Positions 901 to 19,365 of a DNA stretch of 20,000 bases are shown piece after piece (the first letter of the stretch is position 1; each line of letters opens with the position of its first letter). Made by a program: the position numbers and the translations under genes. The notes under the pieces are model-generated. The model saw only the letters and a program-made list of their open reading frames with translations, was not told where the DNA came from and did not search any database. This DNA comes from Chiloscyllium plagiosum (Eukaryota). The DNA lies in contig NC_057719.1 in assembly GCF_004010195.1 (NCBI RefSeq), forward strand, positions 26,984,168 to 27,004,167, read 5' to 3'.

Positions 901-2000
901 CAAGCAAGCTATATAAATAGGAAAGTAGGGAAGGCTTTAAACTGAACAGTAACAATGAGGGATTATGGCTAGATGTAGTAAATCAAGTGTTAGGAGCAAA
1001 GGCAGGAGAACCAAGCAGCAATATGGAAATGAAAGTCAGAAAGTAGTGGGAAAGGACAGAGAGAATATCTCCAAGAGCATACTAACAGTTAAAATGAAAT
1101 GTTACAAGGGTACCAAGAAGACAAAACAACAATTTCTGAATCCATAACATTAATAATAAAGTAAACTCATTGATAGCACACATTTAAATAATAAAATATG
1201 AATTGATAGCCATTATGGATACATGATTCATGTTGGCCAAGGATTAGGTGCTGAATAATGAAGGGCATAGGAAAGTAGGTTAAGGTCACAATATTAACTA
1301 AGGATGACATTGCTATAGTATTTAGAGATGACCTTGCTTTAAGAGATCAGCATATGAAATTTGTTTGAGTAGAAGTGAATAGTAGGGGGAAAAGGTACTA
1401 GTGGGAGTGGGCTACAGGCCTCCTAGCAGTAAAGCAAAGTGTACAAGAAAAAATATTGGATGCTTGTGATAAAGGGACATGTAATCGTGAGTGATTTTTA
1501 TCTACATATGAACTGAAAAAAATTCACTTTGGCATTTATAACATGGATGAGGAATTCATAGACTGCTTTTGAGAGAGTTTCTTAGCGCAACTGAAGAGAG
1601 AGCAGGTTGTGTTAGGCATCGTTATCTCAGATTTAAAGGCATCCCAATGTGGGCATGAAAGCTGAACCAGTTGAAGTGACCCGCAATACTAGGCTAGAGG
1701 ATAGATACATAGAGATGCAGTGACAGACATTTAAATGAATTTTTGATAATATAAAGAAAAGTGCTGTGGGAAGGGCCTGTGTTTAATGCGAGAACTTGAG
1801 AATAGCATCAAACTTAAAGAAAAAGCTTGAAATTGCACAAAGTTGAGGAGCAGGACTGCTGGTCGGATATTTTACAGTGTGGGAAATCAGGGTATAGGTT
1901 GTAACATATTGGCATGGATAGAAGGCTGACCGAAAACAGAGACTGTGCATAAAAGATTCTTTATCTGATTGGCAGGATGAGATGAACACGTTCCTGCAAG

Positions 2001-2229
2001 GAGAAAATGCTGGAAAATCTCAGCAGGTCTGGCAGCATCTTTAAGGAGAGAAAAGAGCTGACGTTTCGAGTATAACTGACCCTTTGTCGAAGCTTTGACA
2101 AAGGGTCAGTTAGATTCGAAACGTCAGCTCTTTTGTCTCCGTACAGATGCTGCCAGATTTGCTGAGATTTTCCAGCATTTTCTCTTTTGGTTTCAGATTC
2201 CAGCATCTGCAGTAATTTGCTTTTATTAG
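2001..2229. mobile_element. Palindromic non-autonomous element (inverted Penelope-like pseudo-LTR arms) with 11-bp target-site duplication
   Basis: 2001-2092 and 2093-2184 are ungapped inverted repeats (84/92 matches by hand), followed by a 45-bp unpaired tail. The flanks are an exact direct repeat, gttcctgcaag (1990-2000 and 2230-2240), which splits the host CR1 at its VPQG motif. Confidence 0.88.
2091..2129 (+). ncRNA. Minimal type I hammerhead ribozyme motif, U3-A8 core variant
   Basis: AGCU [UUGACAA] A GGGUC-aguua-GAUUC GAAAC GUC AGCU. Helix I is AGCU/AGCU, helix II has 5 pairs (two G-U), GAAA is intact, and the predicted cleavage is after GUC (2125). Confidence 0.72.
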
Positions 2230-3165
2230 GTTCCTGCAAGTGTCTATTCCTGCAGCCTCAGCTTATTACAACTTGATTCAATAATGTAGATGAGGGGAGC
2301 AAAGGTATGGTAGCTAAATTTGCAGATGACACAAAACTAAGTTGGAAAGTATGTTGTAAAGACATAACGAGTTTGCAGATGGACATAAATAAATTCATTA
2401 ACAGGCAAAAGTCTTACAGATGAGGTATAATGCAGGAAAATATTAAATTATTCTTTTTGGCCGGAAGAATGGAGAATGACTATAGAATTCCAAAGTGTTT
2501 AGTGCGTTAGTCAGAAAAATAAGCATGCTGGTATAGCAAGTAACTAAGGAAGTTAAGCTGATGCTTCCTTGTATTACAAGTGGACCTAAACCTAAAAGTA
2601 AGTATATTATGCTTAAGTGAGAAAGAGCATTGATGAAACCACATATCAAATGTGCAGTTTTGGTTTGTTTATTAAGAAAGTATGTAAATGCAGTTCAGAG
2701 GAGGTTTACTGGATTGATAACTGGAATGAGTGGATTGTCTAATGAGAAAGGTTGGACAAAGAGGGCTTGTTTTCACTGGAGTTTAGTAGAGTGAGGCATT
2801 ACTTGGTATATAAGATCTTGACTGACCTTGATGAGGCCAATTTAGAAAGGATGTTTCCTCTTGTGGGTCAGTCCAGAGCTAGGGGACACCGTTTCAAATC
2901 TAGAGGTCAACTTCTGGACAGAGTTGATGAGCATATTTTTTTGCTCAGTGGGTTGTGCAGCTTTGGAACTCTGACTAGACACGGTCATTGAACATTCTTA
3001 AGATGAAGGTAGATAAATACCTGTTCGGCAGTGGAATCAAAGGCTATCAGGGTAAATGTGGAAATTAAAACAGTTACAGAACAACCTTTACTTTCTTGAA
3101 TGGTGCAATAAGTCCTGGGGGTGAAGAGCTTACTTTGGTTCCTGAGTCATATAATTGTATGTTTT

Positions 3166-7182: not shown

Positions 7183-7423
7183 AAAAAAACACAAATTGCT
7201 GGAGAAACTCAGCAGGTCTGTCAGCGCCTGCAGAGAGAAAATAGAGTCAGTAATTTCGGGTCCAATGATTTTTCTTCAGAACTGATATGCTGATGAAGGA
7301 TCTCTGGACCGGAAATGTCAACTTTGCTCTCTCCCCACAGATGCTGATCGACATGCTGAGTTTCTCCAGCAATTTCTGTCTTCGCTTCAGATTTCCAGCA
7401 TCCACAGTTCTCGGTTTTACATT
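7183..7423. mobile_element. Second palindromic Penelope-like/hammerhead element (older)
   Basis: Inverted arms at ~7189-7283 and 7290-7379 (aaattgctggagaaactcagca / tgctgagtttctccagcaattt), plus a ~44-bp tail. Cores are CUGAUGA (+, 7290-7296) and CUGAAGA (-, 7273-7279). Degenerate TSD actgacccgatcagt (7168-7182) vs actaacctgatcatt (7424-7438), 12/15. Confidence 0.82.
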
Positions 7424-12945: not shown

Positions 12946-14039
12946 CAATGTCAGTAGAACTGAAAGCAAACATTCTTTGTTTTGTATTCCCCAGTTTATC
13001 CAGTTGTGACAAATCTTGAGATCAATGTTAATTTGATTTCCTTTGGTCAATTGTCAGCATACACAACAATTATAGAATGGCAGTATCTTTGGTGTTGATG
13101 CATCCATAAAAGTATCAGAATTAATGGAGAAATTGATCCAGTGCTTGATGTTGAGTACTTGGAAACTTAATTTGACATTAATTGAATCACACTATCAGGA
13201 TCTTATGAAATGTTCAGGGTTGTATTGAATCACAAAACCATGCACTTTTACAGTATAGGAGAAAGCTGATCAAATCTTATCATGCCTATATCAACTCATC
13301 TTCTTTTAATTATTTCATGAGATGTGAGAGTTGCTCATTCTTAGGACTAAATTAGATGAACACATTGGTGTGCATTGTAGCTGAATTACTTCAGGATTAC
13401 ACACTAACCGAAGTAGGAAACCCAATGTATCTGAAAGTCTTCACTTCAGGAATATGCATAATACAAAACAAACTAGAACTGATTACTCTCTGTCGTATAA
13501 AGCCATCAATAATTGCCCATGCACAGGACGTTCTTTATCCAAACCTGCATATTTTATAATCATTCACTTGAAGGGTTCAAAATGAGACATGCTCCATTAT
13601 GGGTGTGCAATCTATCCTGCTGATTTATTTGATGATCTTCACTCAGTCAAGGACACCATACCTCATGGTCTAATTGGACAATACTGTGAATGCAATTCTA
13701 ATAGCAAATAATGATACATCATAGTGACAGGAGCAAATAAATATTTGTACCATAAACAACATTCAAGATTTGGGGTCTGTCAGAGGATCATATTCATGAG
13801 TTGCATTTTCTGTGAAAGAAAATTGAGATACTTTGTGGAATCATTGAATCACCAGCCCACCCAAAGGCCAATGTAGTCATTCCATCTGTGCCCAATCTTC
13901 ACTGCAGCTATCCTCTCAGTCTCATTTCTCAAATATGTTCCCATAGCTCTTGATTACTCTCTGTTTTTGTCTTGAAAAGTAAGTGCAGCTTTTTTTCTCC
14001 TGTTTCAAAGTAACATTACTCAATATCTGTTGATTTCAG

Positions 14040-14469
14040 GGTATCAGCAGCCTGTTCAGCTCCCTGAAGGTTGTGCGCCTTTTAAGACTTGGCCGTGTTG
14101 CCAGGAAGCTGGACCATTATCTCGAATATGGTGCTGCCGTGCTGGTGCTGCTGGTGTGCGTTTTTGGATTAGTGGCTCATTGGCTTGCCTGCATTTGGTA
14201 CAGTATCGGGGATTACGAGGTCATTGATGAAGTCACCAACAGAATAAAAACAGACAGCTGGCTCTATCAACTGGGTCTAAGTATTGGAACACCCTACCAT
14301 TTCAATGCCAGTGGCACCGGACAGTGGGAAGGGGGACCCACAAAAGATTCATTGTACATATCTTCCCTTTATTTTACCATGACCAGCCTTACCACAATAG
14401 GATTTGGCAACATTGCTCCTACCACAGATGGGGAGAAGATATTTTCTGTGGCTATGATGATGGTTGGCT
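14040..14469 (+). CDS. KCNH5: Internal coding exon of voltage-gated K+ channel KCNH5 (EAG2/Kv10.2): S4, S4-S5, S5, turret, pore helix/filter, start of S6
   Basis: Acceptor tttcAG (14038-14039) and donor GTAAGT (14470). The exon is 430 bp (phase 0 in, phase 1 out) and reads [67 protein letters not shown]...[35 protein letters not shown]. The GFG filter marks the EAG family. [28 protein letters not shown] and VAMMMVG match KCNH5 rather than KCNH1 (HYIEY, GLAAHWMAC, TSVGFG, VAIMMIG) as recalled. Confidence 0.95.
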
Positions 14470-14555
14470 GTAAGTACATGCATTTTTTAATTACCAATAT
14501 AAAATGGTTGTCAGTTTTTTTTTAAGATTATGGTATCCATCCTAAGATGTTGCAT

Positions 14556-15520: not shown

Positions 15521-15625
15521 GAGTTCTGAAGAAGGGTCACCGGACTCAAACGTTAACTCTGATTTCTCTCCATAGATGCTGCCAGATTTGCTGAGTTTTT
15601 CCAACAATTCCTGTTTGGGTTTTGA
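15521..15625 (+). mobile_element. Single arm of the Penelope-like/hammerhead repeat
   Basis: GAGUU CUGAAGA A GGGUC-accg-GACUC (G)AAAC GUU AACUC followed by gatgctgccagatttgctgagtttttcca. Helix I is a perfect 5-bp match, but catalytic G12 is missing. Confidence 0.82.
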
Positions 15626-16794
15626 TATTTGTTATATGACTGTTACCATTTCTAATTTGAATTGCTAAGCAATAAATGTTTTAAGGTGATTCTAGAACAT
15701 AGAGTTTATATAATTCCATTTCTTTACCGTATACTTTTAAACTTATATTTAGGTACAACATCATCCTGAATAAAATATTTAAAGATGAGAGTGAATTTAA
15801 CTGGGGAAAAACTCACCTCCATAAAACTCATAAAAATTGCATAAAACGGTCCACCTGTCATAAAAAAACTTATTCACTTACAGCATCAAAAACAGATACT
15901 TCTACAACAACCTCTTAAAACTGTCAATCAAGATTTAAATGCAGCCTTCTTGTTGAGATGAGCATTTTTGTGTCTTTTGAAATTTACAAGCGTTCACTAT
16001 AGTCCCATCTATTGAAGCAAAATCTGGAAAATGTCAACAATGCAGACAATTGAAATTGAAACATCAGATGGCTTTTCTAATTTATAAGTGATGATCTCTT
16101 CTGTTTTGTAATATTGCTTATCAATCAGTAGAGTGGGCAAATGTTTAGAGATTTTTTGTAGTCCAACAGAAGGACCATTATTTTTACAAAGCTAAAAAAC
16201 TTTGGAAATTTAATCTCAATTCAGACATGGGGTGAGAATTCCCCAGCATAATGTTTCTATAGTTTTAAATGCATTATGTTACATTCTCTAATAGGAAAAG
16301 TACTGCAATGCATTTCATCCATTAGATAATGGTGGTGAATATGATGGTCAACTTACCTTTTCAGAACAGAACCCTAAGATCAATCACTATTATAAACACA
16401 TCTGTATTCCATTACAGAATATGGTACTGTACTAAATGTGTCAAAATATATAACATGTAACTGTATGAATTTCGCAGACTCCTCAGTAGACCTTCTTCAA
16501 AGGTCACAAATTCTCAAACCTGCCATTTTGTTTAGAGCTTCACCAACTGCACCAGCACATGAAAATAGTGCAGGGAAGGAAATGTAAATTTTGGTGGTTC
16601 TTGCAATGGTGACCCCAACCTCAAAAGATGTGCAGACAGGATTCACACATAATCTACTCTGTCTGCAGAACATCCACACAAGCATAATGCAGCATTGGAA
16701 AGGGACAAAAAATTAAAGTTTCCAATCAACGGTCCTAACTGCTTTACTTTCCTGATCCCATTCCTGTCTCCATTAGGAGAAGAAAAACTGGTAT

Positions 16795-18524: not shown

Positions 18525-19365
18525 CTTGAGTGACAGGAAACAGCTGGTAACACTTAAAACATGTTCTTCAGATTGGAGGAAGCTTTATCAAAGTGTCACC
18601 TCAGTGCCAGCGTGGTGACACCACTGTCCATTCAGTGTTGGGAACCTTGCTTTTCTTGATAAATAGTAATGAAGTAGACCTCGATGTCCAGGGCACAGTT
18701 TCAAAATTTATGGATGATGCACGATTTGGTAGCATTATTAGCTGAGGAAAGTGTAGTGTTTTAAATGTAAATGGACAAGTTGCTGGAATGGACAGACAGG
18801 TGGCAAATAAAGTCAAATACAGTGAAGTCTGATATGAATCATTCTGATAGGGAGAACATTAAACAAAAACAGAAGTTGCTGGAAAAGCTCAGTAGGTCTG
18901 GCAGCATTTGTCTAGAGAAATCAGAGTTAACATTTTGGGTCTGGTGACCCTCGCTTAGAACAGAGAGAGTATTAAACCAGGGTGTAAATATGCAGAAGAC
19001 ATTAAAGGTGGCAGGACAAGTTAAGAGAATGATTTTTAAAAAAACCATATATGTAGTATTCCAATCTTTATTAATAATAAAAGACAAAGTGAGTTATGTT
19101 GAACTTGTATAAGAAACTAGTTTAACCTCAGCTGGAGCATCACAGGCACTTCTGAGCATTGTACTTGATGAAAATGTGACTGCATTAGAGAGAGTATAGG
19201 CAAGATTCATGAGAATCATTGCAAGGCTGAGAGACTTCGTTTATGAAGATAAATTGGAGAAGTTAGCACTGCTTTCCTTACAGGAGAAAAACCTGACAGG
19301 ACATCTGATAGAAATATTCAAAATCACAAGAGTTCTGGTTTGTGTGATTAGGGAGACATTGCTGG
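18525..19365 (+). mobile_element. Decayed CR1 RT fragment, interrupted at 18861-18961
   Basis: LSDRKQ...SVLGTLLFLI...VQGTVSKFMDDARFG (RT catalytic region), followed by YEDKLEKLALLSLQ...GHLIEIFKI. Confidence 0.83.
18861..18961 (-). mobile_element. Single arm of the Penelope-like/hammerhead repeat, core decayed
   Basis: Minus strand reads GUU CUAAGCG A GGGUC-acca-GACCC AAAAU GUU AACUC...atgctgccagacctactgagcttttccagcaacttctg. Helix II is perfect and the core is mutated. Confidence 0.8.

Follow-up and report, generated by a model that had tools for sequence, protein, structure and literature searches.

A palindromic unit in the Chiloscyllium plagiosum genome with the pLTR of a Penelope-like element in each arm

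What kind of element left a 229-bp palindrome with two hammerhead-like motifs in the genome of Chiloscyllium plagiosum, how was its mirror half made, and can either strand act as a ribozyme? The unit lies within a stretch of 20,000 nucleotides (NC_057719.1, positions 26,984,168 to 27,004,167), which is called the window here. A preliminary description, made from the letters alone, reported a spacer-less 184-bp palindrome with a 45-bp tail inside an exact 11-bp target-site duplication (TSD), and base-by-base pairing bore this out. Positions 2001–2184 form the palindrome (84/92 pairs matched, zero gaps), and its centre lies between AG and CT of the AGCT at 2091–2094. An unpaired stretch of 45 nt (2185–2229) adjoins the 3′ side, and the 11-mer at 1990–2000 recurs as an exact copy at 2230–2240. 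Three junction bases (2227–2229) have no counterpart in the left flank.

The unit interrupts a decayed dispersed repeat (1850–2440), which we take to be the RT region of a CR1-type LINE. Among 40 scored matches, 39 were paralogues of this host repeat with 71–83% identity. An empty-site test on the collected family loci found nothing, and the host-repeat paralogues were then used. In four of nine of them the flanks are contiguous and the projected flank overlap is exactly 11 nt; the remaining five gave overlaps of 18, 25, 25 and 31 nt and one failed alignment. Since the flanks join with an 11-nt overlap in these four paralogues, the 11-mer was duplicated upon insertion, and the single insertion event that had been proposed stands. 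The features of the unit and its site are listed below.

1850..2440, plus strand: decayed dispersed host repeat, interrupted by the unit (paralogues; flanks contiguous there)
1990..2000, plus strand: left TSD copy, 11 bp (exact repeat; single copy in 4/9 host-repeat paralogues)
2001..2094, minus strand: untailed pLTR arm, arm positions 1–94 (outer ends at 95–109 in 48/54 copies)
2056..2094, minus strand: damaged minimal hammerhead motif with C4 for U4, nominal cut after 2060 (sequence and pairing)
2091..2094, no strand: AGCT junction common to both arms, also the 5′ strand of helix I (modal junction)
2091..2129, plus strand: minimal type I hammerhead motif, U3-A8, nominal cut after C2125 (features as in PMC4209133)
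2091..2226, plus strand: tailed pLTR arm of 136 nt, its 3′ end being the fixed one of the family (arm flanks ORFs in L152, L154 and L155)
2185..2229, plus strand: unpaired tail (single tail in 36/40 centre-picked palindromes)
2230..2240, plus strand: right TSD copy, 11 bp (exact repeat)

Contigs of two sequencing runs from one study (X16 and X19) join 2011 to 2435 and are otherwise identical to the locus. The join is a 423-bp deletion (2012–2434) between 13-nt near-identical repeats, by which most of the palindrome is lost; it may be a genuine allele or an artefact of library or assembly. Elsewhere in the window, an older pair of inverted arms from a related pLTR family lies at 7186–7420; it has boxes of the CUGANGA type and a tail, and its matched arms are about 73 nt apart. 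Single arms related to this family lie at 15522–15630 and 18850–18960. At 14034–14525 there is a coding exon with a Pfam Ion_trans match, from an ion channel that is presumably EAG/KCNH-like.

The arm of the unit is the pLTR of an element with an RT and GIY-YIG ORF. The same arm flanks such ORFs in three loci (L152, L154 and L155), which supports the Penelope origin suggested in the preliminary description. At one end L154 has an untailed inverted arm, TATA and an inverted 3′ UTR, and continues with the RT and GIY-YIG ORF, the 3′ UTR, TATA and then the tailed arm. As in L154, the tailed arm of L155 lies 3′ of ORF and 3′ UTR. L152 runs from AGCT through arm, tail and the 5′ part of the ORF into a second, untailed direct arm; partial tandem pLTRs were seen in L152 and L153. 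In L033 and L045, RT fragments in opposite orientations lie between the arms, the one in L033 being oriented like the untailed arm.

Motifs in the family ORFs are, in our view, recognisable as those of RT and endonuclease. Pfam matched GIY-YIG on a broken ORF fragment with E=0.004, below the Pfam cut-off (1/6 fragments matched), and RVT_1 with E=0.027, likewise below the cut-off (1/4 fragments matched; the L045 range lies outside the RT frame and is uninformative). Atlas look-alikes carry GIY-YIG (0.96) and HTH_animal (0.94), and a PDB search gave 0 matches. The ORFs of these copies are broken. The window copy has no ORF, and the RT/GIY-YIG link holds for the family. A different ORF lies at L157:6141-6639 and presumably resembles a retroviral envelope transmembrane region.

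When the 229-bp unit was compared with the genome (3.56 Gb), all 40 scored matches were near full length and, self excepted, 89–95% identical. The exact 26-bp centre is present at 177 loci and the exact 26-nt tail pattern gave 1639 matches, so the family is of a thousands scale. Against best-hit bias, all 90 tail matches on contig C1 were chosen as an unbiased set. An inverted second arm with varied junctions is present in 54 of these 90 copies, and 36 are without an inverted arm within 1.3 kb. Copies resembling the window unit, with both arms starting at most 10 nt from AGCT and a gap of at most 15 nt, number 23/90, and the remaining ones are solo, truncated or spacer-containing; a second short direct arm was seen in 2/90. 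The tailed arm starts at positions 1–3 in 53/90 copies, and in 14 of these (read by eye) the arm is preceded by a T run, a TATA box and the 3′ UTR, which leaves about 39 that stop at AGCT. This AGCT is the modal 5′ end of solo copies, too. Only 5/90 tailed arms begin near the ribozyme cut, at 33–40. In 48 of the 54 inverted copies the end of the inverted arm lies at position 95–109, and divergence from the majority is 2.7% (73 arms).

Tabulating family copies, as had been suggested, gave varied junctions, a one-sided tail and duplications of 8–17 bp. In the C1 set, leaving out the 7 copies that run on upstream, a duplication (score of at least 8) was found in 62/83 copies; its length is variable rather than fixed, and 14 bp is commonest (n=26 of the 62 found). 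The tail was counted in 40 palindromes from the first 50 listed exact-centre matches: 36 carry one tail, 0 carry two, 1 has none and in 3 the sequence is interrupted by a gap or an insertion. An independent choice at each end would, by hand arithmetic, yield at most 1/2 one-tailed copies. The one-tail rule holds in long ORF-bearing copies as well.

These data are best accounted for by a very short Penelope-like element (PLE) insertion, made of two head-to-head pLTR copies for which both target strands were primed, and which were annealed through AGCT; we give this a probability of roughly 0.62. The palindrome was likely built during this single insertion and inert afterwards. The RNA would start at the A of AGCT, and the element protein would cut the two target strands with a stagger of about 14 nt. 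The cDNA primed by one 3′ end would begin at the tail end (around nt 135) and that primed by the other at around nt 100, the untailed arm (2001..2094) being the putative product of the inner RT start site. On reaching the RNA 5′ end, both cDNAs would run off and pair with each other by way of the self-complementary AGCT, and repair would seal a palindrome carrying one tail. As the arms retain the 35 nt ahead of the cut, uncleaved RNA would have been the template. Priming on two strands is the simplest reading of the one-tail rule, the arm lengths, the shared bases, the TATA box and the joints, taken together with in vitro findings in PMC11167929.

A putative RNA 5′ end at the A of AGCT agrees with the TATA box, which in 17 extended arms lies 28–37 nt (median 32) upstream of this A. 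In sequencing runs, four ORF-to-arm joints fall on this A. Against such an RNA start, raw reads of run X21, a poly-A single-cell run that is weak for 5′ ends, contained no cluster of RNA starts at the arm; they cover the arm, are drawn from many loci and show neither a start nor an end cluster, and run X22 gave 0 reads. A search for RNA data sets with this sequence listed none, and on expression the reads are evidence in neither direction. Also against it, a cap-derived G before AGCT was not found: among the first 100 listed matches out of 310 (counted by eye), the preceding base is C in 75 and G in 25. Of the four G/C pairs at this place, CC occurs most often (about half of the first 100 listed matches), and the CC-preceded junctions come from unrelated pyrimidine-rich flanks; the CC may be microhomology or added bases.

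The AGCT follows a T run and also resembles a 3′ splice site, and in D. virilis an intron ends at helix I (PMC4209133). A spliced upstream exon before CTTTG was rejected: 20 loci share no upstream sequence beyond element pieces (L218 and L223 among them are identical and probably one duplicated locus). Within the arm, a 5′ splice-like site is present at position 15 (window 2105–2110 region), together with three polypyrimidine-CAG sites (arm positions 15–139), and 7 arms in the C1 set begin at arm position 15. The arm may thus contain a retained 5′ intron like those of other PLEs, although reads of the sequencing runs showed no spliced joint there.

A biochemical counterpart exists in the Poseidon element PAc of Anolis (PMC11167929). 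In vitro, RT starts at two sites that bound its tail and lie downstream of the HHR, cutting and extension take place on both strands, and uncleaved RNA is used, with HHR cleavage unneeded; a dimer is also predicted there. The likeness to the proposed mechanism consists in two start sites about one tail apart, in two-strand extension and in an uncleaved RNA substrate. The PAc work is in vitro, and inverted junctions and TSD length are unaddressed in its main text. The 45-bp stretch described as a tail is indeed present at 2185–2229, and we reinterpret it as the known PLE tail (PMC11167929; PMC3846280). It is an even chance that the short copies record a transposition intermediate, in which a dimeric protein would prime both strands of a 14-nt stagger. 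If the two start sites of a single RNA were occupied by one subunit each, exactly one tail would result. Like retroviral strong-stop DNA, the cDNAs would halt where the RNA begins, and then anneal or jump templates.

PMC3846280 describes EN+ PLEs (Pen2a_Av and others) with an inverted shorter pLTR beside the direct pLTR, a TSD, a TATA box, junction palindromes and a 30–40-bp tail at one end only, and PMC8557442 gives a general scheme of such PLE insertions. The unit resembles them in the inverted pLTR, the one-sided tail, the short TSD, the TATA box in the pLTR and the junction palindrome. Unlike Pen2a_Av-type insertions, it consists of two pLTR heads only, without an ORF, and its family, in contrast to them, has one favoured junction and 1639 exact tail matches. 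The two-strand priming model is not given in the parts of these two papers at hand.

The best of the alternatives, although unlikely, keeps the Penelope origin and derives the mirror half from self-priming or snap-back of one cDNA, or from antisense RNA as proposed for Adineta elements. Snap-back had been offered in the preliminary description and would explain why the two arms of one copy have derived bases in common (22 versus 7.1 in shuffles, 0/5000; without CpG sites 15 versus 2.9; 44 copies). These shared bases could also reflect gene conversion. Palindromes at inverted junctions are read as self-priming, on an antisense template, in PMC3846280. However, the untailed arm extends at least 10 nt further than the tailed one in 17/54 inverted copies (the opposite in 5/54) and then has sequence that is absent from the tailed arm, which fits two separately primed cDNAs better. 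The orientation of the RT fragment in L033 and untailed solo copies with their own duplication (L214, L216 and L224) also speak against snap-back, as does the modal junction, in which a single AGCT serves both arms without a loop. We know of no way for a single strand to fold back between AG and CT with zero loop.

Slightly less probable again is a non-autonomous palindromic master (SINE- or MITE-like) that was moved whole by the Penelope protein, the varied junctions being later deletions. Under two-strand priming, too, the varied junctions could partly be later deletions of the palindrome tip. A master is compatible with the exact 26-bp centre at 177 loci, with one tail per copy, which agrees with a one-tailed master, and with the deletion form at the window locus. 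It is also favoured by an odd junction found nowhere else that is common to L146 and L147 (C1:153.65 and 153.75 Mb, 96 kb apart), which have different duplications. Some palindromes may be recopied in view of this junction, and local recopying is possible for these two loci. A master had further been deduced from arm asymmetries, with 16/38 pairs at arm position 25 in best-hit sets, but the diagnostic base at this position is found in 0/68 right arms of the unbiased set, and the deduction was rejected as best-hit bias. The 69T variant occurs in solos (6/34) as well as in palindromes. Moreover, long ORF-bearing copies follow the same rules and cannot derive from a 229-bp master, and a promoter was not seen inside the unit, the TATA box lying outside. 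As a separate observation, L050 (G000:C15:77308649-77311782) has a palindrome of a second pLTR family, with a canonical C3-G8 core and its own duplication, at the edge of an extended palindrome of the window unit's family.

The preliminary description placed a hammerhead at the start of each arm, which stands for the plus strand, where a minimal type I motif with U3-A8 is present. The plus motif (2091–2129) has helix I formed by AGCU/AGCU, the box U3 U4 G5 A6 C7 A8 A9 followed by an extra A, and a helix II of 5 bp, two of them G-U, after which come GAAA and CGUC. There is no real helix III, a palindromic ACGU being found instead, and GUC lies at 2123–2125. The minus motif (2094–2056) fails at U4, which is C (window 2089), and at the closing pair of helix II, which is broken (window 2072). 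Pairing lists confirmed that AGCT serves as the 5′ strand of helix I on either strand. The canonical C3-G8 core is missing from the motifs of both arms. Across the C1 set, the TTGACAA box is present in 45/57 tailed and 26/33 untailed arms and C3-G8 in none, and the whole core is intact in 16/57 tailed and 14/33 untailed arms; U3-A8 is the norm of this pLTR family.

The min-HHRs of metazoan PLEs in PMC4209133 have a 4-bp helix I, an extra base between 9 and 10.1 and palindromic 15.2-16.2; opposite-strand motif pairs lie 100–700 bp apart there, and the U3-A8 core variant is given for Schistosoma. The plus motif shares all these traits (helix I length, extra base, palindromic 15.2-16.2 and U3-A8). 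U3-A8, in Schistosoma in that text, is the norm of a vertebrate family here, and the two motifs of the window unit, unlike those pairs, overlap by 4 nt. An Rfam search of the locus, the check proposed in the preliminary description, matched no hammerhead model at E up to 1, and gave four generic miRNA-hairpin models, all below their gathering scores.

Folding of the whole unit predicted a full hairpin of −155.2 kcal/mol versus −101.3 kcal/mol with the hammerhead enforced on the plus strand, and −142.6 versus −93.2 kcal/mol on the minus strand, an advantage for the hairpin of 54 and 49 kcal/mol. With only 39 nt of the second arm transcribed, when the cut site is emerging, the hairpin is already favoured by about 42 kcal/mol (−66.1 versus −24.4 kcal/mol), and pair probabilities of helix I and helix II on the plus strand are 0 in the full unit. 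For an isolated arm (39–45 nt), the hammerhead fold is at most 1.5 kcal/mol from the best. As the arm alone comes near the hammerhead fold and the hairpin dominates the full unit, the motif suits an RNA starting at AGCT and not the palindrome. The claim that the unit would present a ribozyme whichever strand is transcribed is not supported by these predictions, because the hairpin is about 50 kcal/mol more stable than the hammerhead fold on either strand and the core of the minus motif is mutated. The hammerhead motifs are predicted to be passengers, locked away inside the hairpin.

The folding also bears on a very improbable explanation, already named in the preliminary description, by which the unit is a retrozyme-like element with working ribozymes on both strands and small or circular RNAs. 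Non-LTR retrozymes are defined by units repeated in tandem, head to tail, which cleave themselves into linear and circular monomers (PMC7229834 and 10.64898/2026.07.22.740005), and the latter text proposes that they derive from pLTRs. The unit is, like them, short, non-coding and pLTR-related with a type I hammerhead, and its motifs match the minimal PLE hammerhead. Unlike them, it is arranged head-to-head with no head-to-tail repeats at the locus, and 0/90 C1 copies are a monomer array. Its ends lie at arm positions 1–3 and not at the cut site (position 36), and it belongs to a continuous series of truncated Penelope insertions. The predicted hairpin beats the ribozyme fold and the minus core is mutated, and single minimal motifs were without cleavage and dimers gave weak cleavage in PMC4209133. 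A DNA-transposon MITE with a hammerhead likeness by chance would be short and palindromic as well, but is already refuted by the arm flanking RT/GIY-YIG ORFs, and duplications of 8–17 bp instead of a fixed length and asymmetric ends also contradict it.

A side form of the family was found at 19 loci by exact pattern, in which one arm is joined at the second AGCT, that is at the cut site. Among 12 loci read, the tail is on either arm. Long hairpins capped by a hammerhead were noted at L198-L209, L032 and L035. The minimum-energy fold of L032 is a hammerhead with a long helix I, and its cut-site triplet is mutated. If any form of the family folds as a ribozyme, these predictions make the hammerhead-capped hairpin the best candidate. 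Its origin is explained equally well by a deletion between the two AGCT repeats and by a cleaved-RNA template.

The layout of the unit (inverted pLTR, tail, duplication and opposite-strand hammerheads) is already in print in PMC3846280 and PMC4209133, and the window locus itself is ordinary. Among the paper listings consulted, outside subscription journals and Repbase/Dfam, none dealt with PLE palindromes in sharks or with twin priming in PLEs. For annotation, such hairpins call for caution, as they score as miRNA precursors and double ribozymes and are predicted to be neither. The family is valuable as a dataset, since the origin of inverted pLTRs is called undefined in PMC8557442 and left open in PMC3846280. 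For the in vitro system of PMC11167929 it yields sharp predictions: one tail per copy, a duplication of 14 bp and a fixed stop. If the copies do record a transposition intermediate with both strands primed, sense RNA alone would suffice to explain inverted pLTRs, tails and partial tandems. The side product would then be a hammerhead-capped hairpin with a helix I of at least 60 bp, in which the hammerhead would fold (19 exact loci).
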